A stretch of 63,230 nucleotides of DNA, filler included, from Chlamydiia bacterium (GCA_903848235.1; 10 parts of 10 records of this genome joined end to end with filler, not necessarily neighbours in it), one strand, 5' to 3'. Counted from the first letter of the whole stretch, positions 1,879 to 63,230 are shown. Notes: generated by a model not told the origin, from the letters alone. Numbers and translations: made by a program.

Positions 1879-2902
1879 TAGTTTTGGGACTCTCTTCCGT
1901 GTCACAACATTTGGCGAGTCACATGGCGAGGGTGTTGGATGTGTTGTTGACGGCTGTCCCGCCGGCCTTTCCTTGTCGGCAGCTGATATCCAGCCGGAAC
2001 TTGACAGGCGCTCTCCAGGAAAAGCCGTAGGAACGTCGAAGCGCACTGAGCCTGATGAAGTGCAGATCCTCTCTGGTGTCTTTGAAGGCAAGACAACGGG
2101 CGCTCCTATCGCTATGTGGATTGCAAATACAGATGTAGACTCTTCATCCTATGATAGCTCTGTGATACGTCCTGGGCATGCAGACCTGACTTATTGGCAC
2201 AAATACGGCCATGTTGACCATCGTGGGGGCGGTAGGGCGTCAGCTCGGGAGACGGCAGCGCGTGTGGCTGCAGGAAGTGTTGCCAAAAAGCTATTGCACA
2301 GCGCGAAGATTGGGGTGAGTGCATGGCTGTCGCAGATAGGGAATATCATTCTTCCGAGCGTCTGTTCGCAAAAAGATCAAGAACAGGTGGACGCGCTGTT
2401 AGAGAGTATTGGGCATCAAGGGGATTCTGTTGGTGGAATTGTATCCTGTCGCATCGAACACCTTCCTCCTGGTCTTGGTGATCCGATGTATGAGAAGCTT
2501 CCCGCGAAGCTTGCCTTTGCCATGCTCAGCATCCCTGCCAGCAGAGGCTTTGAGATTGGCGAGGGGTTTGCAGCAGCTGGAATGAGCGGCTCAGAGCATA
2601 ACGATCCTTTGGTCATTTGCGAAGAGTCGATAGTGGCTGCTACAAATCATGCTGGTGGAGTGCTTGGAGGCATTTCAACGGGCATGCCGCTATTTTTTCG
2701 GGTTGCTTTCAAGCCAACATCGAGTATCCGCACACCAATTGCGACGGTGACAAAGGAAAAGCAGATCACCTCTTATTCAACGCCTCCCTCCGCCCGTCAT
2801 GACCCGTGTGTAGCAGTGCGCGGCTCTTGCGTCGTTGAGGCCATGGCAGCTCTTGTCATCGCTGATTGCTGGTTGATGCAGAAGCTGTCTAGTGTCGCAT
2901 GA
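1868..2902 (+). CDS. aroC: chorismate synthase
   Basis: TTFGESHG, RPGHAD, GGGRASARET, FKPTSSI and RHDPC motifs. Confidence 0.97.
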   Translation: MASNSFGTLFRVTTFGESHGEGVGCVVDGCPAGLSLSAADIQPELDRRSPGKAVGTSKRTEPDEVQILSGVFEGKTTGAPIAMWIANTDVDSSSYDSSVIRPGHADLTYWHKYGHVDHRGGGRASARETAARVAAGSVAKKLLHSAKIGVSAWLSQIGNIILPSVCSQKDQEQVDALLESIGHQGDSVGGIVSCRIEHLPPGLGDPMYEKLPAKLAFAMLSIPASRGFEIGEGFAAAGMSGSEHNDPLVICEESIVAATNHAGGVLGGISTGMPLFFRVAFKPTSSIRTPIATVTKEKQITSYSTPPSARHDPCVAVRGSCVVEAMAALVIADCWLMQKLSSVA

Positions 2903-3108
2903 TCTTCAGTGCGTTTCAAAAATCCAAAATGGACGGGGCGTACGATTTTTTTTAGCGGAAGTAAAAAGATCCCTTGATTGAAATTCCAGTCTCGTCATAG
3001 GGTTCAGGGAGCTAAATGCTATCTTTTGTTCCATTGTGTCACCTGTATGTATGGGATATAAGAGGTCATAAGGTTAGCTGTGATAACGTTTATAGAGGAG
3101 AATTGGCG

Positions 3109-3447
3109 ATGAGATGGATAGGCAGTGGGTTGATGATGGTGATGGCAAGTTGTGGCTTGATGGCAAATGGAGAAGAAGCTTCGCCAAAAGCTGAGCAACA
3201 GACGACAGTGCACGACCTAGACAGACAGATTCTGTTTTTGAAGGATAACATCGAAAAATACAATGCGATGGCGAAGTCGTTTGATCGAAAAGTTGGTGAC
3301 CTGCAGTCGAAAGACTATAATGGATCGCGAGACTTTGCTGTACTCAGAGATGAATGTCGAGGCATTGCCAAGGATTTAGAATCACATCTCGTCACTCTTG
3401 AACAGAAAAGAGCGCAGATGCAAGAGCAACAAAACGCAAAGAAATAA
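3109..3447 (+). CDS. small secreted helical protein, paralog 1 of 3
   Basis: GAGGAG RBS, N-terminal hydrophobic signal, shared DLDxQI...D(Y/F)xG(S/Y)R...LExxRA pattern. Confidence 0.75.
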   Translation: MRWIGSGLMMVMASCGLMANGEEASPKAEQQTTVHDLDRQILFLKDNIEKYNAMAKSFDRKVGDLQSKDYNGSRDFAVLRDECRGIAKDLESHLVTLEQKRAQMQEQQNAKK

Positions 3448-3493
3448 CCCTTTGTGAAAGAAATAGGGGAGGGGGGTGTCACTTCCTCCCGTT

Positions 3494-3517
3494 ACCTCGA
3501 CTTTGTAAAGTCGAGGT
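3494..3517. repeat. minimal, internally deleted copy of palindromic repeat family B
   Basis: ACCTCGACTTT-GT-AAAGTCGAGGT equals the two termini of the ~160-bp elements at 12462 and 35995 joined together. Confidence 0.75.
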
Positions 3518-3572
3518 TACTGCTTTTTCTAAGCGTGAAATCCAATTCTTGAACAAGAAGAGGTATAGTATC

Positions 3573-3923
3573 ATGAGTTTTTTACGCACTCTTGCGGTCA
3601 TAGCAGCAACGTGTCTGAGCAGCATTGCCGTGGCACAGGACGAGAACGCTGAACCTATCACTCCTCCACCAGTATCCCTTGAGGATTTGGATTATCAAAT
3701 CAAGCTGTGCAAGCAATATATCGAAGAATATAAAAATCAAGCCTTTCTGTTCGATGAGAAGGCTCAGAGCTTGCTGTCTCATGACTTCATGGGATATCGG
3801 AATGCTGAGTCGATGAGTCAACAGAGTCAGTCTATTGCTGATGATTTAACAGGGCATCTTCAGAATCTTGAAAAACAACGAGCAGAGATGATGCAGCGTC
3901 AATCTCAGTCGCAAAAAAAATAG
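3573..3923 (+). CDS. small secreted helical protein, paralog 2 of 3
   Basis: Signal peptide ending AVA; LEDLDYQI...SHDFMGYR...LEKQRA. Confidence 0.8.
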   Translation: MSFLRTLAVIAATCLSSIAVAQDENAEPITPPPVSLEDLDYQIKLCKQYIEEYKNQAFLFDEKAQSLLSHDFMGYRNAESMSQQSQSIADDLTGHLQNLEKQRAEMMQRQSQSQKK

Positions 3924-3950
3924 ATTTTTGACGTATAAGAGGCTTTTTCT

Positions 3951-4283
3951 ATGAGACATCTGCTCATAGCTCTTTTCCTAGCCATGGTGTCATGCGGAAG
4001 TATTGCGGTATGTGATACCAAGGCTCCTCCCGTGAGCCAGATGTCGCTTGCCGAGATTGACGCACATATCAAAGAAGTGAAGGTAGACATTCGGATCTAT
4101 CAAAGTAGAGCTGTTTATGCTGACCGTCAAGCGCAGCAGCTGTCAACGCATGATTTCTTTGGCTATCGTCAAAGCCTTGAGGAGAGAGATCAAAATCTCG
4201 ATGCTGTGAAGGCCTTGCAGAAAGAGCTTGCTATCCTCGAACAACAACGGGCTACAATAGTGGAAGGTCATAGCGGTCAGTGA
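3951..4283 (+). CDS. small secreted helical protein, paralog 3 of 3
   Basis: Signal peptide; LAEIDAHI...THDFFGYR...LEQQRA. Confidence 0.8.
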   Translation: MRHLLIALFLAMVSCGSIAVCDTKAPPVSQMSLAEIDAHIKEVKVDIRIYQSRAVYADRQAQQLSTHDFFGYRQSLEERDQNLDAVKALQKELAILEQQRATIVEGHSGQ

Positions 4284-4726
4284 GGGTAGAGATGTTTGAG
4301 GCATGCCGGCAGAAGCAAGAAGAGGTCAAGAAGCTTTTCGCTGCAGCAGCAACGCCAGAAGAGAAGTATCAGCTGTTGATGGACTTAGGGAGGCGGCAAG
4401 TGTCGCTTTCTCCGGAAGAGAAGACAGAACAGAGCCGTGTTCGTGGGTGCCAGAGTATTACCTATCTGAAGGCAACGCTTGAAAATGGAAAGTCGTACTT
4501 TCACATAGAGTCAGATGCGTTGATATCGGCAGGGTTGGGGCAAATTCTGACAATGGTCTATAGCGGGCAGGCGCCGGAAGTCGTCCTCAAATGCCCTCCT
4601 ACCTACTTAGAAGAGCTTGGCTTGTATGCCAGCTTAAGCCCTGGCAGAGCGAATGGCTTAGCCAGTATGTTCACAAAGATGAAGCAAGAAGCTCTCAAGC
4701 ATATCATGGCGATGACACAGGGCTGA
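4280..4726 (+). CDS. sufE: SufE-family Fe-S sulfur acceptor
   Basis: VRGCQS with catalytic Cys, SDALI, LSPGRANGL. Confidence 0.92.
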   Translation: MRVEMFEACRQKQEEVKKLFAAAATPEEKYQLLMDLGRRQVSLSPEEKTEQSRVRGCQSITYLKATLENGKSYFHIESDALISAGLGQILTMVYSGQAPEVVLKCPPTYLEELGLYASLSPGRANGLASMFTKMKQEALKHIMAMTQG

Positions 4727-4747
4727 TTCTTACGTAAAGGATGCTTT

Positions 4748-5650
4748 ATGAGAGCGCTCGGTCAGGAAATAAGAACCAGAGAAAACCTCTCTCTTTATGC
4801 AGAGACTTTTGGCAAAAAAAAGAATGATGTATGTCTTCTGATCGCTGGAGCAGGGGCGTCTTGCCGTTTTTGGACCGATTCTTTTTGCCAGTCTTTTGTC
4901 AAAAAGAATTTTTTCGTTATTCGCTATGATCAACGGGATGTAGGACTCTCCTCCGTTGTTGATTTTGCAAAAAAGCCCTACGACCTCGAAGATCTTGCTG
5001 CCGATGTTATTGATATTTTGGATTACTATGGAGTCGAGCAAGCCAATCTCATTAGTTGTTCGATGGGTGGCCATGTCGCCCAGTGGCTGGCCTCTACCTC
5101 TCCAGAGCGTGTGAAGAAGTTGGTAGCTATATCAACAGGACCTATTGGAGAGGTGGCTGATTATAATTTTCAGCTCTCACCTCATCAAAAGGCTCTTTCA
5201 GAAGGGGTTTGGAAAGCGCTTCGCGATAATCATCCAACGTCAAATTTTGAAGAGAGTATCGAAGGTTTCCTGAAGGTCTGGCGCCTGCAGAACGGTGAAT
5301 TTCCCCTGGACGTGAAGATGGCGACGGAATACACCCGCGATCTGTATTTCCGTGGCAACATCACTGCAAGGTTTCACCCATCCTATGTCGCGGTCATCGA
5401 AAAAACAATATCCAGTCTTAAGGAGAGGAGCTCTCTTTTAGCTAAAATTAAAGCTCCCACCCTTGTCATTCATGGAAAAGCAGATTCTCTTCTATTACCT
5501 CAAGTTGCTGGAATACCTCTGGCTTTGGCGATACCAGAGGCTGAATTGCAGCTGATTCCTAAAATGGGACATATAATGTTCAATAGGGCACTGGAAGAGA
5601 ACATTGCTTCGAGGATTTTAATTTTTTTAAATTCGCGAAGCGAAATTTGA
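4748..5650 (+). CDS. alpha/beta fold hydrolase
   Basis: RYDQRDVGLS, nucleophile elbow SCSMGG, TLVIHGKAD, MGH. Confidence 0.9.
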   Translation: MRALGQEIRTRENLSLYAETFGKKKNDVCLLIAGAGASCRFWTDSFCQSFVKKNFFVIRYDQRDVGLSSVVDFAKKPYDLEDLAADVIDILDYYGVEQANLISCSMGGHVAQWLASTSPERVKKLVAISTGPIGEVADYNFQLSPHQKALSEGVWKALRDNHPTSNFEESIEGFLKVWRLQNGEFPLDVKMATEYTRDLYFRGNITARFHPSYVAVIEKTISSLKERSSLLAKIKAPTLVIHGKADSLLLPQVAGIPLALAIPEAELQLIPKMGHIMFNRALEENIASRILIFLNSRSEI

Positions 5651-6012
5651 TTTGAGGGCGGATCCTTCGGGAAGCTCCGAACAATTCTCTATTCTTCCCA
5701 AAACTTTGCATTTGGTTTCTCAGTATGGTGGCGATATGGTCAGTGTTGTAAGCGCTTGGGCTCAGGTGGAGCAGGGCTTGTATTTTGACAGCAATCTCTT
5801 ATCTACGGACAGGTCGAAGAAGGAAAGGTAAGATGTTGTTTTCGAACAGTCTATTGCCAAGCTCCAACAGCAAACGCAGGTCCCGTGCTCACTACAAGAT
5901 GTCATACGTGCGGCTGAGCATGTAAATAGCCGTTTTCTAGGAGCCTTCAATAAATATCATTAAATTGTCAGGGTCTTTTTTATATCTCATGAACTCTCCG
6001 TTGTACGAGTGT

Positions 6013-6153
6013 AGGGTTAGTAACTGCTCGATAAAATATGGACATATCTGGATAAACCTACCCTTTTTGTCCAGATTTTGACTAGCAAAAAAAACATACT
6101 GCACATCTCCAGATCAAGGCATCTTTGTTTTTTCGTGCTATAGTTTAAACAAA
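6013..6153. repeat. dispersed repeat family A (MITE-like), truncated by contig end
   Basis: Near-identical reverse complement of 6255-6395; terminus AGGGTTAGTAACTGCTCGATAAAATATGGACATATCT also at 29844-29880. Confidence 0.85.
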
Positions 6154-6253
6154 NNNNNNNNNNNNNNNNNNNNNNNNNNNNNNNNNNNNNNNNNNNNTTA
6201 ATTAATTAANNNNNNNNNNNNNNNNNNNNNNNNNNNNNNNNNNNNNNNNNNNN
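6154..6253. other. artificial contig linker (first of nine)
   Basis: N44-TTAATTAATTAA-N44 six-frame stop linker; same at 11570-11669, 24988-25087, 29603-29702, 35131-35230, 49219-49318, 53596-53695, 58006-58105 and 60643-60742. Confidence 0.99.
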
Positions 6254-6254
6254 C

Positions 6255-6395
6255 TTTGTTTGAGCTATAGCACGAAAAAACAAAGATGCCTTGATCTGGA
6301 GCTGTGCAGTATGGTTTTTTTGCCAGTCAAAACCTGGACAAAATGGGTAGATTTATCCAGATATGTCCATATTTTATCGAGCAGTTACTAACCCT
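6255..6395. repeat. dispersed repeat family A, inverted copy at contig start
   Basis: Reverse complement of 6013-6153 with scattered substitutions. Confidence 0.85.
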
Positions 6396-7194
6396 TGGTA
6401 AAAACAGTAATGGTCCCGTCACCGGTATTGGCGATATAGATTTTTCTCCCATCAGGGGTGATGGCTATCCCCACAGGAGCTTCTCCCGTTGAGAAGAGTG
6501 TTCCAAGGAAAGACTGAGAGGGAAGATCAATGTATCCGACAGAGTTTTCATGAAAGAACGTGGGGTACAGTGTCATTTCGTCCGGGGAGACCGCAACAGC
6601 ATCACTAAACTCATGGCCGGGACACCCAATGCTTGTAGATATATCATGCGCAAGATCGATGGTATTAATGAATGTGGTGCCAGGTTCATCGTCTCCAGAA
6701 TTTACTATATAGGCTGTTCTGCCATCAGGGGTGATGGCGATCCCATACGGCGTTCCCCTTTTTTCCAAGGGGATGGCGCTTATGAGGCTATGATCAGAAA
6801 GGTCGATGCGCCAACTGAAGGGATCAAACGAAGGGTATAGTCCTTTTCCGGTGACATAAGCAGACCAGCTTCCCTGATACGTATACCGGTCAGTAGAAGT
6901 TATGTCAGAAGTAACCGATCCTACACTCGCTAAAATATGAATAGTACCTGGCACTGACTCTGGAGCCTTCACGGTAATTTCTGTGTCAGAGCTGGTGACA
7001 ATGGTAGCCGGTGTTTGGCCAAACAGCACCTCAGTCACCTCTGTAAATCCGGTTCCGGAAATCGTAACCATATCACCGCCTGCTGACGCGCCATGGTTCG
7101 GACTGACGTGAGTGATCTCACATATCCCAAAGAGCGCTGTGGCAGAAAAAACAAAAAAAATAATGGTTGGTATGAGAGATTGTCGAAGTTCCAT
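6388..7194 (-). CDS. secreted IPT/TIG + YncE/YVTN-type beta-propeller protein, probably truncated by repeat A
   Basis: Signal peptide; ITHVSPNHG...GGDMVTISGTGF (IPT/TIG); GIAITPDG and AVAVSPDE propeller repeats; last codons and stop lie in repeat A. Confidence 0.8.
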   Translation of the reverse strand: MELRQSLIPTIIFFVFSATALFGICEITHVSPNHGASAGGDMVTISGTGFTEVTEVLFGQTPATIVTSSDTEITVKAPESVPGTIHILASVGSVTSDITSTDRYTYQGSWSAYVTGKGLYPSFDPFSWRIDLSDHSLISAIPLEKRGTPYGIAITPDGRTAYIVNSGDDEPGTTFINTIDLAHDISTSIGCPGHEFSDAVAVSPDEMTLYPTFFHENSVGYIDLPSQSFLGTLFSTGEAPVGIAITPDGRKIYIANTGDGTITVFTKG

Positions 7195-7337
7195 AGACGT
7201 TGCCCTACATGCACATGCGGTTATTCCTTTTGTAGGGTGACTTCAAAATTGTTGTCTATGTTTTGTCATGAAAACAAAGGATGCCAGGTCAAAATATATT
7301 TAAAAAATTTTGGCCTGGCAACTCAAGTAGCGAAGGG

Positions 7338-9131
7338 CTATTTAGGCTTCGTTTTCTTCCTCATCCTGATAACAGCCGGTGTGACTTCGACAAGCTCATC
7401 ATCTTGGATGTAGTCGATTGCCTGTTCGAGGGTAAAGCGATGCGGGGGAGTGAGGATGATATTTTCGTCACTGCCAGCAGCACGAACGTTGGTGAGCTGC
7501 TTTTCCTTGGTAATATTGACAGAAAGATCATTTTCTCGAGAGTTCTCGCCAACGATCATCCCTTCATACACATCGTCGTTAGGGGCAACGAATAAGCTTC
7601 CTCGATCTTGAAGTTGAAAGGAAGCGTATGGCGTTGTCCTGCCAGCGCAATTGGCGACAAGGACGCCTTGTCGACGGCCGACGATAGCGCCTTTGTGGGG
7701 CTCATAGTGATCAAAAATCGAGGTCAAGATCCCAAGGCCTCGTGTAATAGTCAGGAAGGAATTGCGATATCCCATAAGACCACGCGTTGGGATGAGGAAT
7801 TCCATGATGGTAAGACCTTCAGCGGTCGTGTCGAGGCGTTGTAACTCCCCTTTGCGTTTGGCGAGTTCTTCAATAACACATCCTGCGAAGTTCTCTGGAA
7901 CTTCGATGAGCGCTCGCTCTATAGGCTCTTCTGTGGTGCCGTCTACCTCTTTGAGGATGACGCGAGGCTTGGCAATGCTCATTTCAAACCCTTCTCGGCG
8001 CATCGTCTCAATGAGTACCGATAGGTGCAGCTCACCACGGCCAGCGACTGTGATCACTTCTTGGTCTGAAGACGAAAGGTCGATTTTCAGGGATATATTC
8101 ATCTTCTGTTCGCGTTCGAGGCGTTCGCGCAACTTATGCATGGTGACATATTTGCCAGAGCGGCCTACGAATGGGCTGGTATTGACACGAATGTCGATCG
8201 ACACGACAGGCTCTGTGATATGGATCGGAGGCAGACGAACGATATTCTGAGGATCGCAGAAGGTGTCTCCTATCATCGCTTCTGGAATTCCAGAGAGGAT
8301 GACAATGTCTCCTGTTGAAGCTTCTTTGAGTTCAACACGCTCCAGCCCTAAGTGGCCCTCAATTTTTGTGATTTGCGCTCGCTTCTCTCGTCCCTGACTA
8401 TCGACATGAGTGATCGTAGCGCCTTTTGCTACTGAACCATTGAGGATTCGTCCGCAGGATTGGCGGCCTAGGTATTCGTCGTAAAAGAGCATGGCAGGTT
8501 GAAATAAAAACGGAGCATGCTCATCGCCGTCTGGTGCTGGAACCGACTCAACGATCATATCAAAGAGTGGGGCGATGTCGACACGAGGATCGTCGATATT
8601 ACGGACAGCGAATCCAGAGAGCCCTGAGGCATAGCAATGGGCAAAGTCGAGCTGTTCATCGGTTGCCCCAAGTTCAATGAAAAGGTCAAAAGTCGCTTCT
8701 AAGGCTTTATCAGCGTCGGCATGGGGGCGGTCGATCTTATTAACAACGACGATAGGCTTCAGGCCAGCTTTGAGAGCCTGAGAGAGGACAAACCGTGTCT
8801 GCGGCATAGGCCCGTCTTGAGCATCGACGAGAAGCAGTACAGAGTTAACCATTCCAAGCACACGTTCTACTTCAGCTGAGAAGTCTGTATGGCCTGGGGT
8901 ATCGATGATATTGATTTTATAGTCTTTGTAGGCGACCGATGTGTGTTTTGCGAAGATTGTGATACCACGTTCACGCTCTTGGTCAAAAGAATCCATCATC
9001 CGTTCGGCGACAGCTTGATTAGAACGAAAGAGGTGGGATTGTTTGAGAAGGGAATCGAGGAGTGTCGTCTTCCCATGGTCAATATGAGCGACGATGGCGA
9101 TATTTCTAATTTTTTCTCGAGGGAACTTCAT
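7338..9131 (-). CDS. typA: translational GTPase TypA/BipA
   Basis: AHIDHGKTT, ERERGITI, DTPGH, NKID, GRGELHL, KQLTNVRA. Confidence 0.97.
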   Translation of the reverse strand: MKFPREKIRNIAIVAHIDHGKTTLLDSLLKQSHLFRSNQAVAERMMDSFDQERERGITIFAKHTSVAYKDYKINIIDTPGHTDFSAEVERVLGMVNSVLLLVDAQDGPMPQTRFVLSQALKAGLKPIVVVNKIDRPHADADKALEATFDLFIELGATDEQLDFAHCYASGLSGFAVRNIDDPRVDIAPLFDMIVESVPAPDGDEHAPFLFQPAMLFYDEYLGRQSCGRILNGSVAKGATITHVDSQGREKRAQITKIEGHLGLERVELKEASTGDIVILSGIPEAMIGDTFCDPQNIVRLPPIHITEPVVSIDIRVNTSPFVGRSGKYVTMHKLRERLEREQKMNISLKIDLSSSDQEVITVAGRGELHLSVLIETMRREGFEMSIAKPRVILKEVDGTTEEPIERALIEVPENFAGCVIEELAKRKGELQRLDTTAEGLTIMEFLIPTRGLMGYRNSFLTITRGLGILTSIFDHYEPHKGAIVGRRQGVLVANCAGRTTPYASFQLQDRGSLFVAPNDDVYEGMIVGENSRENDLSVNITKEKQLTNVRAAGSDENIILTPPHRFTLEQAIDYIQDDELVEVTPAVIRMRKKTKPK

Positions 9132-9368
9132 CAGAATGGTGTCCAGGCTACAGCCGTTGATGCCATGATATGCGATCAACAAAGAATGATTTGAGAAACA
9201 GTTCAAAACATTCTGGCTTCAGTGTATAAACAAACAAAACATGTAAATAAAAAAAGAATGAAAAAGAAGCGAGCGCCGAGCTTGTTCAAACTAATTTTAC
9301 GTAATTATACAGGATGCCGTCTTTTAAATCTAGATAGTGTCAGACACTGTTTTTAGAATATGTACTTC

Positions 9369-30852: not shown

Positions 30853-33800
30853 ATGTTCGTTGATTGTGGTTTTGTTGTTGGTGATCTTCCATGCTCTTGC
30901 CCTCCGGCTCTAACTTCAATAGTGACGACCGAAAGGAAAGGAATTCGGGAGACGTATGAGGAAAATAGAAAAAAAATTGGAGATTTCACATATTCACGCG
31001 TCTCAACCGATGATGCCTTCAAGGTGGCTCTTCTTGTGCCCATCGTCGCGGAGCGTCTTCTTCGGCCAGATGGAGAGATAGATGCCGGTGTGTTAGAAGA
31101 GGTTCGCCATGAACTTATTCCGGGAGATAGGATTGAAGAGTCTATCGAGCGGATGTTAGAGAAGATTGCGATCTGTCAACCATTTCTGGCGAAGATGAGA
31201 GAGGTTCGTGCCTCTGGGAGCGTCACGGAGAAGGCGATTGTCAATATCACATTGCGAAGAGATGCCGCACATCCGATTTCCGATACTGATGTTCGCTGTG
31301 CTCTTTTGGCTCACTGTCTAGCACCTGCCGTTGGGACGAATCTTGTTGATCTGGCATGGGAGGAGAAAACTCTTTGTATAGAGCACACCCTTGATGATCT
31401 CCAATCACTTTTGAATCATGGTTGTATAGAACGGACTGTTTTGGGGCAGAAATACCGTTTTTTCGGAAAAAAATCGAAGTCGTTTCTAGACGAGATTCGC
31501 GATGGTCCCACATCGATGAACTCTCCTGGATGCGATTCATGTTCTGTCATCTATCCTCCGTTGGTTGACCAGTGGAAAAACGCTGTCCTGAGTATGGAGT
31601 GCTTGCCGAGCTCTCTTATGGTAAATAGACCTGAATGGAGAACGCTCTTCTACCAAGGACTATCAAAGGCTCTGTGTGATGCCGCCCTTGCACTTCATAG
31701 AGACGATGTTGCGCAACAGTATCAAGACGCTTATGTTCTTCTGACAGCTCATCTATACATAACCAATTCCGCCGATGTCATTATTAAAAGACAGGAGCTG
31801 GAGTGCCTAAGCCGCTTTCGCGTGTGCTGCGGCGAGGCTCAAAACCCCATGCTGTGCGTTCAAGAGGGTGACGATATTGTAGAATGTGATTCGGCGGACT
31901 TATTTGTTAAATGTGCGAAAAAAGTTTTGCTCGATATGTGTGGCTCCGTTAATCAAAGTGATTGGAGTCGTATATCGTCCGATGGATCAACAACGATTGA
32001 AGATTGCTTAATCACAGCACTACGAGCCCTCTACAGCAGCTGTCCTGCCGCTGATCCATGGGGGATGCCAGTGATTATTTTTCCAATGGCTCTTGGGGCG
32101 ATGACAGAAGGGGTTCTTCGCGTTGGTTTGGTGCCAGGAACGTTTCACCACGTGGCTCTGTGTGCTCAATGGCTTCGGGGACACTATCCCTATTCATTTA
32201 TCCCATCAGGATCGAAAGCATTATTACTACGAGAGCCTTCTCTCGTGAGCGCGAGTGAACACTACGCCGATTTGGTAAAAAAAACCGATGAGTTATTGAA
32301 CGCGAATGATCAAAAAATTCAACTCGCTGTGCTCACCCGTTTTTATCAGGTGCTTGTATCTCTTGTGGTCGCTCGCCAGGGGATAAAACTGATAACGTTG
32401 GATATGTGTAAAGCAACTTTGATGGTGTTGGTTAAATCATCGATGCACCCACTGCAGAAAACGCTTCGTGAAATGGTCCAAAAAGCTGAAGAAATAACAA
32501 GAATTCTATTGACTGAAGCGGAGGTGCAACGACTGGACGAAGTTGTGTTGAATTCTCTTTATGAACTTCAGAAAGATGCGGTAGAACAGACTCTTGTCAA
32601 GTTCGCACAGAGGAACAACAATGGATTGTATTTTTGGCTAGGTCCTATTGGGGGCGAATGTCAAGTAGAATATTGTCGGTCATCTTTCGCTTTTTCTGTA
32701 TTAAAAAAAACGTCGATTTCATGGTCTTTTGCTGGAGACATGCAACAGTCGCCAGAATTGAGAGAAGCCAGTGCTATTCAACAGATATTACTCGATAAAG
32801 GGCTTGAAGGGTGTTCCCTTGACTGCGCCTCGACAGGTACAGCTCCGCTTGGTCCAGATATCCCGAAAGGCGAGCATCTCATTTCCGCACTCCAACCAGT
32901 GCCGGTCGGCATTACCTGTAGTATTACGGAGGCTCGTCGGAAATTTCTGTCTGATATGGACGGTCCTGAGGAGGTGCTCGTAGATGCTGTTGCCAAACAA
33001 TTACAGGCAAGGAAAGAGGCTTGGCCGCTAGGGTGCCGAATGGTAGAGGAGGCCGGTATTCCTCTCTCTCTTATACGAATGTATCGGTTTCCATATCTTA
33101 TCGCCGATGCGCTCGTGCTTCCTGATGGTGAGTATAACTGGGGTTTGATCGATGACGTTATTCGTGAGCTTACTTCACAAACGAGGGTGCGTGACGATGC
33201 AGACGGTGAAATCATCAGCATGCTCTATCGCTTTCAGAGTGATTTGAGGCTGAAAACCGCTTTGGAGTCAATACCAGTGCCGACAAGAGACGACTCTTGC
33301 ACTCTTATTCGACGATCATTGCACATGGAAGAATCAAGTCAGGTGAGTCTTCGTGATGTCCGTCACGTCTGCCTTGCCGTTTGTTTGACATGTGTTAGGC
33401 AATGTTTTGCGCCTGATTGCTATCTCTTCTCAAAAGTAAGCTCGATCAAAGATTGTCATCCTGAAGTTATGCTTAGTCATTTCAAAGATTTAATGATGAC
33501 TGGAGGTATCCGTGGATATGACCAGAGTGTTGCCACTGGGGGCCTCTCGGAGTCGCGTCAGCATGTGACGGACGATCAAGAGGTGCTGTTTCGTTCATTT
33601 CCTTCGTCGAGTTCCGTCACGGTCAAAAATGTGCGGCGTTATATTGCGAAGCCTTGTGTGCAAAAACAGCTCCAGTCGGACGGCATAGCGCCCGAGCTGT
33701 TTCTAGAGAAGGCGCTGACACTGATTCGAGAAAAAGGCGTGATTTCAATGCAGGAACTACTTGCCATGGCGGGTGTTTCGAAAGAGCTCTATCGGCAATT

Positions 33801-35079
33801 TGTCAGTGCGACTGAATGTCCTCTGTTCGAAATGTGGGAACTTGCTCTTGGAGGGGTTTTGTTCCCTCCTGCGACTGTCAACATTGATCCTATTGAGAAG
33901 CTTCGCAAGGAGTGGACAGAGAAATTGTTGGTTTGCTGCTATTCAGAGGCAAAACGCCTTCGCCTCACACTATTAGCATCGCGCCTGTATGGCATGTTGC
34001 GGACGGTCGAAGGGAATCAAGAGGGGATGGACCCACTGTTCTGCTGTTTGAACAGCATTCGGCATGGGTTGCGATTTGATACAGAGGGACTGTACTGGGT
34101 TCCATATACTATGCGCGCGAACAATCCCAGCCTGATTCTACCAGACGATAGGAACGCGTTTGAAGGACTGTTCTTAGATCTGTGCGAATCTGTGTACAAA
34201 GATGGATCAGAGCTTACTCTTGCTAGAGAACAGATGCAACGGCCGACATACCAAGAGTGTTTCGAAGAAGCTGTTCATTATCAGGTGACGCCGGCAGGCG
34301 TCACGTTCGGGGAGTGTCGGACATTGCATTCGTCGATGTTTCAGAAAGCGTTAGCTCACTGGATTCCATCAGGGCCCGTGAATGTACATATTCAACAGGT
34401 AGCTCTGTGGCTTGAAGAAGGGGATAAAACAGCGAGGGTCTTCGTGGAGATTGTATCGCATTCTGCTTCGCAGAGTATGTGGAGAGGGATTACTGCTGTT
34501 ATGGGAAACTCAGGACATGCTTTCCGGGTTTTACCGAACCATCCTCGGTGTACTGACAGAGGGCTTGACCTGGCGAAGCAGTTGCAGGTCAGTATGTGGG
34601 AGAGGTTGTGGAAGCCAGAGTCGCACTTGGCTTCTATAGTATCTCAGAAGATTCAAGCTATGGTAGAGCTGCGTTTTCCGAAGGAGAAGGATCTTTTAGC
34701 GGCTGTTTCGATAGAGATCAATAAGGAGCCTTCTTCTGGAGTGAGAAGAAGAAATCGTGAAGTGCTACTCGACGTTATGACTCGAGTTAGAGAAGTTGTG
34801 AAACGTCGATTCAATGACCGGGAGTTGCGATGCATAGAACTCGCGGCTTTTCGAGGTATATCGACTGATTATCCGCAAGAGTCTGTTTTCACGTTTATTC
34901 CGTTTGCTGACACGAACTGGATGAAGAGAAAGGGTTCTGAGGTCGAAAAAATAGTGTATGGTTTTTACTTTAGTCCATTGTCAGGATCCTGGAGGATAGC
35001 GACGGCCTCCAGATTAGAGATCGAGGATACCTTTGAACAAATTCCCGCCAAACTTTTGCAGATAGAAACCCCTGTGTAA
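30853..35079 (+). CDS. 1408-aa protein with two tandem homologous domains; the second has papain-like Cys/His/Asp motifs
   Basis: Internal duplication (LLRPDGE/LVLPDGE; SDTDVRCALLA/SLRDVRHVCLA; PLVDQW/PLFEMW); RQCFAPDC, SGHAF, FADTNW. Confidence 0.85.
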   Translation: MFVDCGFVVGDLPCSCPPALTSIVTTERKGIRETYEENRKKIGDFTYSRVSTDDAFKVALLVPIVAERLLRPDGEIDAGVLEEVRHELIPGDRIEESIERMLEKIAICQPFLAKMREVRASGSVTEKAIVNITLRRDAAHPISDTDVRCALLAHCLAPAVGTNLVDLAWEEKTLCIEHTLDDLQSLLNHGCIERTVLGQKYRFFGKKSKSFLDEIRDGPTSMNSPGCDSCSVIYPPLVDQWKNAVLSMECLPSSLMVNRPEWRTLFYQGLSKALCDAALALHRDDVAQQYQDAYVLLTAHLYITNSADVIIKRQELECLSRFRVCCGEAQNPMLCVQEGDDIVECDSADLFVKCAKKVLLDMCGSVNQSDWSRISSDGSTTIEDCLITALRALYSSCPAADPWGMPVIIFPMALGAMTEGVLRVGLVPGTFHHVALCAQWLRGHYPYSFIPSGSKALLLREPSLVSASEHYADLVKKTDELLNANDQKIQLAVLTRFYQVLVSLVVARQGIKLITLDMCKATLMVLVKSSMHPLQKTLREMVQKAEEITRILLTEAEVQRLDEVVLNSLYELQKDAVEQTLVKFAQRNNNGLYFWLGPIGGECQVEYCRSSFAFSVLKKTSISWSFAGDMQQSPELREASAIQQILLDKGLEGCSLDCASTGTAPLGPDIPKGEHLISALQPVPVGITCSITEARRKFLSDMDGPEEVLVDAVAKQLQARKEAWPLGCRMVEEAGIPLSLIRMYRFPYLIADALVLPDGEYNWGLIDDVIRELTSQTRVRDDADGEIISMLYRFQSDLRLKTALESIPVPTRDDSCTLIRRSLHMEESSQVSLRDVRHVCLAVCLTCVRQCFAPDCYLFSKVSSIKDCHPEVMLSHFKDLMMTGGIRGYDQSVATGGLSESRQHVTDDQEVLFRSFPSSSSVTVKNVRRYIAKPCVQKQLQSDGIAPELFLEKALTLIREKGVISMQELLAMAGVSKELYRQFVSATECPLFEMWELALGGVLFPPATVNIDPIEKLRKEWTEKLLVCCYSEAKRLRLTLLASRLYGMLRTVEGNQEGMDPLFCCLNSIRHGLRFDTEGLYWVPYTMRANNPSLILPDDRNAFEGLFLDLCESVYKDGSELTLAREQMQRPTYQECFEEAVHYQVTPAGVTFGECRTLHSSMFQKALAHWIPSGPVNVHIQQVALWLEEGDKTARVFVEIVSHSASQSMWRGITAVMGNSGHAFRVLPNHPRCTDRGLDLAKQLQVSMWERLWKPESHLASIVSQKIQAMVELRFPKEKDLLAAVSIEINKEPSSGVRRRNREVLLDVMTRVREVVKRRFNDRELRCIELAAFRGISTDYPQESVFTFIPFADTNWMKRKGSEVEKIVYGFYFSPLSGSWRIATASRLEIEDTFEQIPAKLLQIETPV

Positions 35080-60641: not shown

Positions 60642-60743
60642 ANNNNNNNNNNNNNNNNNNNNNNNNNNNNNNNNNNNNNNNNNNNNTTAATTAATTAANN
60701 NNNNNNNNNNNNNNNNNNNNNNNNNNNNNNNNNNNNNNNNNNC

Positions 60744-63230
60744 AAAAAAGTCACTTCTCTCCTCACTCGATACGGGCTCAATACTCAACGGCTAGATAGT
60801 CTCCTTCGAGATAGTCTCGGTGTCATCTCCTATGATGACTACCTTATGGAACTCAAAGAACTAGGATTTAAGGTAAACAAAGACAAAAACACTCTCGAAG
60901 AAGTATCAGCGCAGGTGAGAAGCTCTTTTGCCATAAAACTTCACAAGGCATCTCTCCCCATTTCCACACAAAGGGACGCTGCTGATCGCCTCGAAGAGAA
61001 CCTAGCAACATACGAGAAATATCGTACCGACGTCATTGAGGTCAAAACCCGTTTTCGAGATATTGAACAACGGGCCATAGCTCTTCATCCAGAAGTAGTC
61101 TCTATCATGCGAGGCCCCCCTACACAACAAAAATGGGAGCAGCTGATCTCATGGTGCAATACGCACAGAATGACGCCCCTGCCAGTAGCTATTTCTGCCG
61201 AAAATCGAGTTGAGCTCCTCGAGCAAGTCGTAGCAACTCTTGATGCTGTTCACAGATCAACGCCGGCTGTTCACGAGGGCCATGAACCACTTTTTGATGC
61301 AGCCGCGTTACTTCGTACCATTGGGGCTGGGTGGGAATCAGAGAAGATCGAGATAATGCTTGTACCCCTCCAAAATCTCCAGAACGACTCTCTCCTACAA
61401 GCATTAACAGTTCTGTACACCATGCCACCTGAAAAAGTACGGCCATTTCATCCCCTTCTCACAGATCTCATCACTAACCTCGCCACAGGAAGTGTCAGGA
61501 CCCAGGCTGAAGTAGAGCGCATAGTAGGAGAGCTCATCTTCCTTATCGATTCCAACGTTGACGTTCACGATATTCCACAAGAGCTTTCAGCAGCATATGC
61601 ATGGGTCGAACGACAAGCGCGTCTTCAGATTCGTTCACGGCAGGAATCCCTTGAATCTGAAATCTCAGATCCTCGCATGCATCGCCTCTGTACTGAAGAA
61701 ATGCTTCGAGAGACTCGCCTTCCTCAACTACTTGCAGATCTGTTAATCACGAATGACGGCTATTGCAACACAGGACTATCCACCCTGGTCCGTGAAATAT
61801 TTCTCCCTAAAAAGGACGAGAGAACAGCTGCTCAGGAGCACCTGGCTTCTCACTTAAGCCTCCTCCGTTCGTCACCGGCTCTCAGAGCTAAGCTCTCTTC
61901 TGTTACAGCACCACCCCTCGCCTCACCGGGCTGCTCTCTTGTACGAATTTCTCTCGGACAGTCCCTCGAACACCGAGTAACGGCTGCCGATGCTCGTAAG
62001 GTGTGCCTTGGCGCTCTTTTTGCTTGGCATCGACAAGGCGCTCTTGGCGATTGCTTTGTCTCTTCCCAATATGAGTTTGCCGCCGACGAGGCCTCCTTGT
62101 GGATACTCGACGACTTCCGAGAACTTATCGAGCAAGGGTCTCTTACAAGGACTTTTGGGGGCAAGACATATACCATTGACGGCCTCCCATGGCAGGCTCT
62201 TTTTATCTCCATATCTACAATTCGACAAAAATCCAAAGAGCAGCTTCGTTTCCTGTATGAAGTGCCTCTCTTTCAACAAGCTCTGTCTGAACTAGGAACT
62301 GTGACGCAAAGCGCATGGGAGACACTTGTAGATCATCAGACGCCTCCTTTCGACGTACGTTCGATGTTCCTTCAGATTAACCCTGACATAGACGCCGTTC
62401 AAAGGGCGCTTTTATGCATTGAATCGCAAGGGCACAATCCTCTTCAGAGAATGTGGCAAAATGCCGCTGCCTCCATGCAGTATGTTGACACCCCAGGAAG
62501 AGAACTACCTAAAGCCCGAGGACTATTTGCAGCTGTACAAAACGCTTGTATCGAAATCGCACATGGAAGCACGCCTCAATCTCACGATATTCAAGAAAAA
62601 ACTCTCTCTGAATTGTGTGCCAAGCTGCGATATTGTGTCGTCTCTCAAAATCCAAGGAACCTCTCAGTGGTAACACATGAGGAGCTATCACTAATTCCTC
62701 TCTATCAAAAGTCAGAAAGTCAGTGGGTACGCCTGGGTAAAGAAGATCTAAAACATCTCTTGGGGCAGACCTTTGCTGCTATCTATCCAGACATTGCTAT
62801 GGATCATGAGAAAGAAGAGCTTCTGTTTCAGAAATACCTCGAACACCTCAAGACACAGGGTGTAATCGACGGAGTCTCTTCTGCGGATGTTGTTGGAGGA
62901 GTCCTTCTCCTCCAATTCAATGGGGGCAAAGCTTCGCAAGATATTTTTGAACGGCAACTGATTCCATGCTCATATACGCGCCTATCATCTTTCGACGTTC
63001 GGCCCTTGCTCGCATGGACACAGAAGCTTATGGAATCGAAGCCGCTTCCTTCACAGACCAGCTTCATAGTAAACGCATCGAGTCATCTCTTTCGATTGCT
63101 TCCCCTTCACAAAAGCCTTGTCGCCTGTGCCACGGATCCACAGGAAGCAATAGACCGACAGATTGACTTCGCTAACCATTTTCGAGATCAAACTCGACCA
63201 TTCAGTGACTGGATGCAGATATTGAAGCAA
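60744..63230 (+). CDS. fragment (829 codons, open at both ends) of a large protein paralogous to 30853-35079, with a calpain-like motif; not in ORF track
   Basis: Manual translation found no stop; HRQGALGDCF at 62028-62057, NPLQRMWQNA, SSHLFRLLP (His codon at 63084). Confidence 0.88.

Follow-up and report, generated by a model that had tools for sequence, protein, structure and literature searches.

What does the open reading frame (ORF) at the end of this stretch of chlamydial DNA encode, and does the calpain-like heptapeptide in its product reveal what the protein does? The stretch analysed, hereafter the window, is 63,230 nucleotides long and consists of ten contigs of one assembly from a Chlamydiia bacterium (GCA_903848235.1), with N/TTAATTAATTAA spacers between them; the source is a Chlamydiota metagenome assembly of 2.35 Mb in 284 contigs (93% complete, 4.85% contamination). 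The last piece of the window is the whole of contig C263 (2488 bases, 60743-63230), and the ORF in question runs through it on the + strand for 829 codons without a stop (60744..63230). The active-site Cys motif of calpains is Q-G-x-L-G-D-C-[WF], a pattern satisfied by QGALGDCF at residues 431-438 of the translation (P0001, hereafter the window protein). From this heptapeptide and a downstream His, the original prediction proposed a Cys hydrolase of the papain fold, plausibly directed at the host. According to the analysis reported here, the window gene is an inner piece of a CT590-family paralog, and it is predicted to encode a Cys-His-Asp enzyme with a papain-like active-site layout.

The reading frame as a fragment of a larger gene

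Translation and the contig limits bear out that the last contig is one uninterrupted + strand frame of 829 codons. The frame had been missed by the ORF track, it was suggested for lack of a stop, and this fits its listing as '3open': with open ends allowed, the ORF extends from its first ATG over 60846..63230 (795 amino acids, 3' open). The G+C content of the frame is 0.44, with a range of 0.417-0.518 in the window. By my own arithmetic, 829 consecutive sense codons would arise by chance with a probability of (61/64)^829, about 5e-18, and one given heptapeptide in 829 residues with a probability of about 6e-7. Judged from sequence comparison, the C263 frame is a real gene, because it has a 50% identical relative, seven paralogs in the same genome and more than 1000 family members. 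The relative, P0002, is a metagenome protein of 960 amino acids and the closest to the window protein; the seven other ORFs of the same genome matched the window protein in phmmer with E values from 3.5e-38 to 2e-4.

Both ends of the window gene are cut off by the limits of its contig. The tail is absent from the assembly as a whole: P0002 runs about 340 residues past the point that matches the end of the window and, when used as a query against the whole assembly, retrieved no counterpart of the missing tail. A 223-residue C-terminal remnant on contig C154 was rejected as the missing tail: it is 49-53% identical to the paralogs on contig C159 and does not match P0002.

A profile of 11 family members, run with HMMER against 1.84 billion cluster representatives, matched 1158 sequences at E<=1e-3, of which 918 also passed E<=1e-10 and 490 passed E<=1e-30. 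For 151 family proteins, the median length is 973 amino acids. Neither Pfam nor NCBIfam holds a model for this CT590-like family, and a cluster look-up of 10 members returned no name other than 'hypothetical protein'. The family match of the window protein recurs in 29 of 41 related genomes. A word-index homolog search gave two matches only, a scan of metagenome contigs no close relative of the window protein, and the ESM Atlas a best score of 0.84, below the meaningful level.

Residues 197-800 of the window protein (61332..63143, + strand) match positions 67-727 of the family hidden Markov model (alignment A4) with an E value of 1.4e-107; this profile contains the window sequence itself, and independent support for the region comes from E values of 1e-33 to 1e-22 against the same-genome paralogs. 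The preceding 196 or so residues (60744..61331, + strand), predicted with lower confidence to be helical, lie outside the profile and are probably lineage-specific.

Nearly invariant residues in the family

Conservation was counted over 112 aligned family members, whose mean column identity is 15%. The heptapeptide QGALGDC occupies residues 431-437 of the window protein and forms part of RQGALGDC (62031..62054, + strand), which comprises Arg430, the predicted oxyanion-hole residue Gln431 and the predicted nucleophile Cys437. The codon of Cys437 is TGC (62052-62054), exactly where it had been placed. Gln and Cys are each present in 111 of the 112 members, the sole exception for both being one fragment that starts later; the Arg preceding Gln is kept in 110/112 and the Gly at position -2 from Cys in 92/112. 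The A, L and D of the heptapeptide are variable, and at position -1 D is found in 7/112 members as opposed to S in 84/112. Because these three positions vary in its own family, the heptapeptide is not a calpain signature: it is one family variant of RQ-x4/5-C, and its letter-for-letter match to calpains is partly coincidence.

The second motif, SSHLFRLLP (residues 779-787, 63078..63104, + strand), contains His781 (63084-63086), the predicted general base. It lies 344 residues downstream of Cys437, in agreement with the distance of about 340 originally given, and the Cys-His spacing in the family ranges from about 330 to 515 residues. This His, which the original prediction had singled out, proves to be the one invariant residue of the family (112/112, in the context HxFxLxP), and the next Phe is kept in 100/112. 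A third motif, [FI]-A-D-[ST]-N-W, follows about 115-210 residues past the His: in ADxNW, the Asp is conserved in 111/112 members, the exception being the window's own cut-off protein, the Asn in 108/112 and the Trp in 99/112. The conservation expected of Gln, Cys, His and Asp on the original proposal is what the family alignment displays. When the window protein is examined for the family motifs, RQ-x4/5-C and H-x-F-x-[LI]-x-P are both present, while the position of the third lies beyond the end of the contig.

Two more nearly invariant residues are Asp457 (62112-62114) and Arg469 (62148-62150), which bound the segment 62112..62150 (+ strand). Both residues are invariant in an 11-sequence alignment (A1), and in the 112-member alignment the corresponding positions are D in 107/112 and R in 105/112. 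In the model described below, they are part of helix 451-464 and strand 466-471, just after the Cys helix.

Predicted structures

AlphaFold2 models of the window protein and of P0002 were built with the family alignment. The P0002 model has a mean predicted local distance difference test score (pLDDT) of 81.2 and a predicted template modelling score (pTM) of 0.83; the corresponding values for the window protein are 83.5 and 0.77, with pLDDT ranging from 41 to 85 over residues 1-210 and falling below 50 at residues 174-195. In the window protein, helix 437-449 starts with Cys437, and strand 782-785 comes directly after His781. In P0002, Cys232 is likewise the first residue of a helix (232-244) and His569 directly precedes strand 570-574; about 100 residues of helices follow the His, then Asp686 and Asn688 in strand 682-690, and then four strands.

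The papain fold is defined by a helix that carries the Cys, followed by a His and a third polar residue on strands of a sheet (PMC10318531). A Cys at the N-terminus of a helix, with a Gln upstream of it, is predicted in both models, as is a His at the start of a strand; the third polar residue on a strand is seen in relatives of the window protein only. The order Gln, Cys, His, Asp/Asn and the secondary-structure placement of these residues match a papain-like layout, and a papain fold is plausible.

A predicted Cys-His-Asp thiol enzyme

Since Gln, Cys, His and Asp are almost invariant, the CT590-like family is likely an unrecognised thiol enzyme. For the window protein itself, a thiol hydrolase or transferase built on Cys437, His781 and an Asp, with Gln431 as the oxyanion residue, has in my judgement a somewhat better than even chance of being the correct description, given the conservation pattern and the models. 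Cys437 would act as the nucleophile and His781 as the general base, oriented by the Asp (or Asn) of ADxNW, a motif absent from the window copy; Gln431, six residues ahead of the Cys, would form the oxyanion hole. Between these elements lie long helical segments, which may be insertions that shape substrate choice. The ancestral role would lie inside the bacterium, where the enzyme would process or turn over a protein of the bacterium or a component of its envelope, and the expanded paralogs, the window one included, would be diversified versions, exported or not.

A comparison with known families shows where the resemblance lies. The CT590-like family shares with papain (C1) and calpain (C2), both of clan CA (CL0125), the placing of a Gln (six residues before the Cys), a Gly (at -2) and an aromatic residue (at +1). 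Its likeness to the papain fold extends to a Cys at a helix start, a His at a strand start and, on a later strand, an Asp/Asn followed by a Trp. Unlike papain-fold families, however, it separates Cys from His by about 330-515 residues and His from Asp by about 115-210, distances far longer than theirs, and in its third motif Asp is more conserved than Asn. Transglutaminase-like proteins and the BTLCP group (PF01841) also look similar in having a Cys-His-Asp triad, an Asp on a strand, and an aromatic residue and an Ala after the Cys. Compared with these, the CT590-like family looks closer to papain, in view of its conserved Gln ahead of the Cys and of the N-W that follows the Asp. The transglutaminase-like models (PF01841 and relatives) gave no Pfam match in the window protein, 10 family members or 11 core orthologs, not even at E<=10.

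A papain-like fold is thus what I infer from motifs and secondary structure, and several points weigh against it and against the catalytic reading. No sequence model ties the family to any peptidase clan in Pfam, NCBIfam, or PDB sequence and profile searches. For the window protein, a Pfam scan gave a single sub-threshold row (DUF7495, E 0.074), an NCBIfam scan nothing, and a PDB sequence search a best E value of 0.64. Pfam scans of 10 family members and of 11 core orthologs from alignment A2 (the latter at E<=10) returned nothing over threshold, nor did a profile of 112 sequences against PDB sequences. The best sub-threshold rows of the Pfam, NCBIfam and PDB sequence searches were unrelated helical proteins. 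The 960-residue model of P0002, compared by Foldseek with 350,542 PDB chains, had no hit at E<=0.001; a designed cage ranked first (E 0.1), and among the 50 best rows the papain fold was represented by USP28 alone (rank 19, E 0.74, probability 0.06). The search against known structures put forward with the original prediction has thus yielded no papain-like match at that threshold with the P0002 model. Of its papain-fold reading, the helix that opens on Cys and the strand that opens on His are seen in the models, and a papain core is plausible. Moreover, the window copy is without the third motif (ADxNW), the contig ending before that position, 48 residues after His781. The conserved Cys, His and Asp could alternatively bind a metal or be structural, and activity is a prediction for all members of the family.

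The link to CT590 and the role of the core copy

The original prediction also pointed to a resemblance to a conserved chlamydial hypothetical family of about 950 residues (RQxxGSCF...FADTNW), and this link is right. In alignment A2, which contains the form of about 980 residues from 11 genomes, the invariant blocks are LRQSLGSCFATAPAI, SPTHAF and FADTNW. They agree with the motifs originally given, and they constitute the consensus of a core group of which the window protein is a paralog. In trees of the 112-row alignment, the window protein falls beside P0002 (support 98-99) and P0029, in an expanded clade that also holds the source genome's paralogs on contigs C156, C159 and C89; the product of C94 falls in a separate core clade of 53 rows. 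The window protein is only about 17-20% identical to core orthologs, from which it further differs by a Gln-Cys spacing one residue longer and by its N-terminal region.

The core clade also contains a protein of 963 amino acids from a Chlamydia-sized genome of 1.22 Mb, whose gene lies in the order uvrB-eno-(635 aa)-(607 aa)-[963-aa ortholog]-sdhB-sdhA-sdhC-tatD-dsbD. According to a published gene table, Chlamydia trachomatis has uvrB at ct586, sdhA at ct592, sdhC at ct593 and tatD at ct594, with ct590/ctl0853, 'hypothetical', 954/955 amino acids, in between (PMC6686042). CT590 was described as a Chlamydiales-specific signature protein of 954 amino acids with a Protochlamydia counterpart of 989 amino acids (PMC1403754). 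On the evidence of gene order, length and the 989-residue Protochlamydia counterpart, the 963-residue ortholog occupies the C. trachomatis CT590 position. It keeps all the motifs of the family: LRQDVGSCFATAFAI, SPTHVFSII and LLFGDSNWA. CT590 and its orthologs (about 954-990 amino acids) are like the window protein in profile comparison over their full length and in their RQ..C and HxF motifs, and the window gene is a divergent paralog of CT590 rather than its ortholog, the genome's own ortholog being on C94.

What CT590 does has been approached by mutagenesis and secretion assays. Transposon insertions in ct590 have been obtained twice independently, and the reported phenotype of ct590::Tn is a loss of almost 2 log, that is almost 100-fold, in progeny at 24 hours post infection, with smaller inclusions at 42 hours (PMC6686042). 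As far as the flattened table of PMC1403754 is readable, CT590 is expressed mid-cycle. A 2014 study picked CT590 as a type III secretion candidate, but the test was inconclusive because the reporter failed to be expressed (PMC3931295); the BlaM and GSK assays published in 2026 led to a score of 'Not secreted' (PMC13251465, Table 1). In view of this score and of the progeny lost on disruption, the core CT590-type protein most likely acts inside the bacterium. In the 2006 BLAST screen reported in PMC1403754, the best match to CT590 outside chlamydiae was a protein of 645 amino acids from Porphyromonas gingivalis (E 0.003), which might be a distant relative outside the phylum.

A search of the open-access PMC and bioRxiv literature found no paper that assigns a catalytic function to CT590 or its relatives. 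CT590 is a 'signature' protein common to pathogenic and environmental chlamydiae and is listed as hypothetical; a specific catalytic hypothesis, in which Cys, His, Asp/Asn and Gln are nearly invariant in more than 100 diverged members, makes this conserved unknown testable. The multi-copy expansion in an environmental chlamydia in turn offers natural variants for finding determinants of substrate choice. A broader proposal, which I put forward tentatively and would place somewhat short of an even chance, is that the CT590 family is an unclassified, chlamydia-specific branch of the papain superfamily, made of giant Cys-His-Asp enzymes whose catalytic pieces are spread over about 700 residues, with a core copy that is intrabacterial and needed for normal progeny, and with environmental arsenals of up to eight copies, two of which are in the window.

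Alternative explanations

The alternative that survives best concerns where the window paralog acts: unlike the core copy, it could be a secreted, host-directed effector (a protease, deubiquitinase or acyltransferase), which I regard as unlikely, though worth serious consideration. The family has undergone a lineage-specific expansion, with seven divergent paralogs in a 2.35-Mb genome, three of them in tandem; the expanded clade is separate from the core clade; and the paralogs have extra, poorly conserved N-terminal regions. Environmental chlamydiae, moreover, tend to expand their effector families. The N-terminus, the site of any type III signal, however, lies outside the window, no host-like domain was detected in the Pfam scans of the window protein and 10 members, and CT590, the only member tested, was scored not secreted in Table 1 (PMC13251465), the earlier heterologous test having been inconclusive for want of expression (PMC3931295). 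The host-directed role originally put forward is therefore doubtful for the core member, and only the expanded paralogs would be candidates for it.

Slightly less probable still is that the family is a thiol enzyme or metal-binding protein of some other, non-papain fold, in which the Gln/Cys/His/Asp pattern arose by convergence or chance. In its favour are the lack of a papain-like Foldseek match and of any profile link to clan CA, and the variability, within the family, of three positions in the seven-letter 'calpain' motif. Against it stands the papain order of the predicted elements, a Cys helix, a His strand and an Asp/Asn-Trp strand, with a Gln located 5-6 residues ahead of the Cys, which an aromatic residue directly follows. 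The negative Foldseek result must also be read with the method in mind, since Foldseek is weak for cores split by insertions of 100-300 residues; the rows of a wide VIA-align search covered model residues 893-960, 815-891 and 1-134 only, which are helical ends outside the core.

A non-catalytic scaffold or structural protein, whose conserved residues would serve folding or partner binding, is improbable. The length of about 1000 residues and the mostly helical models would suit such a protein, but against a background of 15% mean column identity, individual polar positions that 111-112 of the 112 members preserve are characteristic of active sites rather than of scaffolds.

The weakest alternative, a true calpain (MEROPS C2) acquired from a eukaryotic host, is largely refuted and can be given hardly any weight: although QGALGDC is present verbatim, as originally observed, membership in the calpains did not follow, for a six-frame search with PF00648 (Peptidase_C2) matched 0/151 chlamydial genomes, the source genome included, but did match the control genome of Bacteroides thetaiotaomicron, the family consensus is RQ-x3/4-GSCF with the window letters as one variant, the HxFxLxP and ADxNW contexts, like the Cys-His spacing of 344 residues, belong to the family itself, and the family is old within Chlamydiota.

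Family copies in the source genome

The source genome contains eight family ORFs, one core ortholog of about 980 residues and seven divergent paralogs, three of which are in tandem. Besides the window gene on C263, they are found on contigs C156 (1130 amino acids), C159 (the tandem trio, of 1159, 1160 and, truncated, 666 amino acids), C89 (1185 amino acids), C258 (1408 amino acids) and C94 (the core ortholog, 980 amino acids). The C258 ORF lies in the window at 30853-35076 on the + strand. It carries an N-terminal, degenerate half-copy of the Cys region (residues 31-203) without the RQ..C motif and, downstream, a full copy with RQ at 849-850, Cys856, His1222 and ADTNW at 1352; this looks like an internal partial duplication. 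The tandem genes of C159 (locus L026) occupy 106-2106, 2110-5589 and 5682-9164, all on the - strand, and the third paralog stops at 666 amino acids, before the His motif. Together with the separate C-terminal remnant on C154 mentioned above, this tandem suggests recent duplication and decay within the expansion.

Spread and neighbourhood of the core gene

A pattern scan based on alignment A2, with one genome per species, confirmed 108 loci, of which 80 were kept. By their record titles, nearly all are from Chlamydiota (Parachlamydiaceae, Protochlamydia, Waddlia, Simkania, Rhabdochlamydiaceae), and a few are in metagenome-assembled genomes labelled Verrucomicrobia or Bacteroidetes. Among 150 Chlamydiota genomes >=90% complete, the core ortholog turned up in 125, including every one of the 26 from the family whose genomes measure 1.0-1.4 Mb. 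It is near-universal elsewhere, but in one chlamydial family (f4) just one of the 19 near-complete genomes yielded it, and in two others (f26 and f10) none of two and none of one did; these gaps could reflect lineage-specific loss or divergence past detection.

The context of the core gene differs between lineages: it is divergent from thrS in environmental chlamydiae and lies beside the sdh operon in the Chlamydia-sized genome. In 10 of 12 inspected environmental loci (L053, L057, L058, L068, L072, L076, L083, L085, L098 and L099), an ORF of about 640-670 amino acids is found on the opposite strand just upstream of the core ortholog, which itself is at about 4800-7800; in all three loci scanned with Pfam (L058, L085 and L099), this large ORF encodes threonyl-tRNA synthetase (thrS). 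In most of the ten, two ORFs of about 235-270 amino acids come after it, which in L058 encode a ParA-type ATPase and a UPF0137 (pGP6-D-like) protein.

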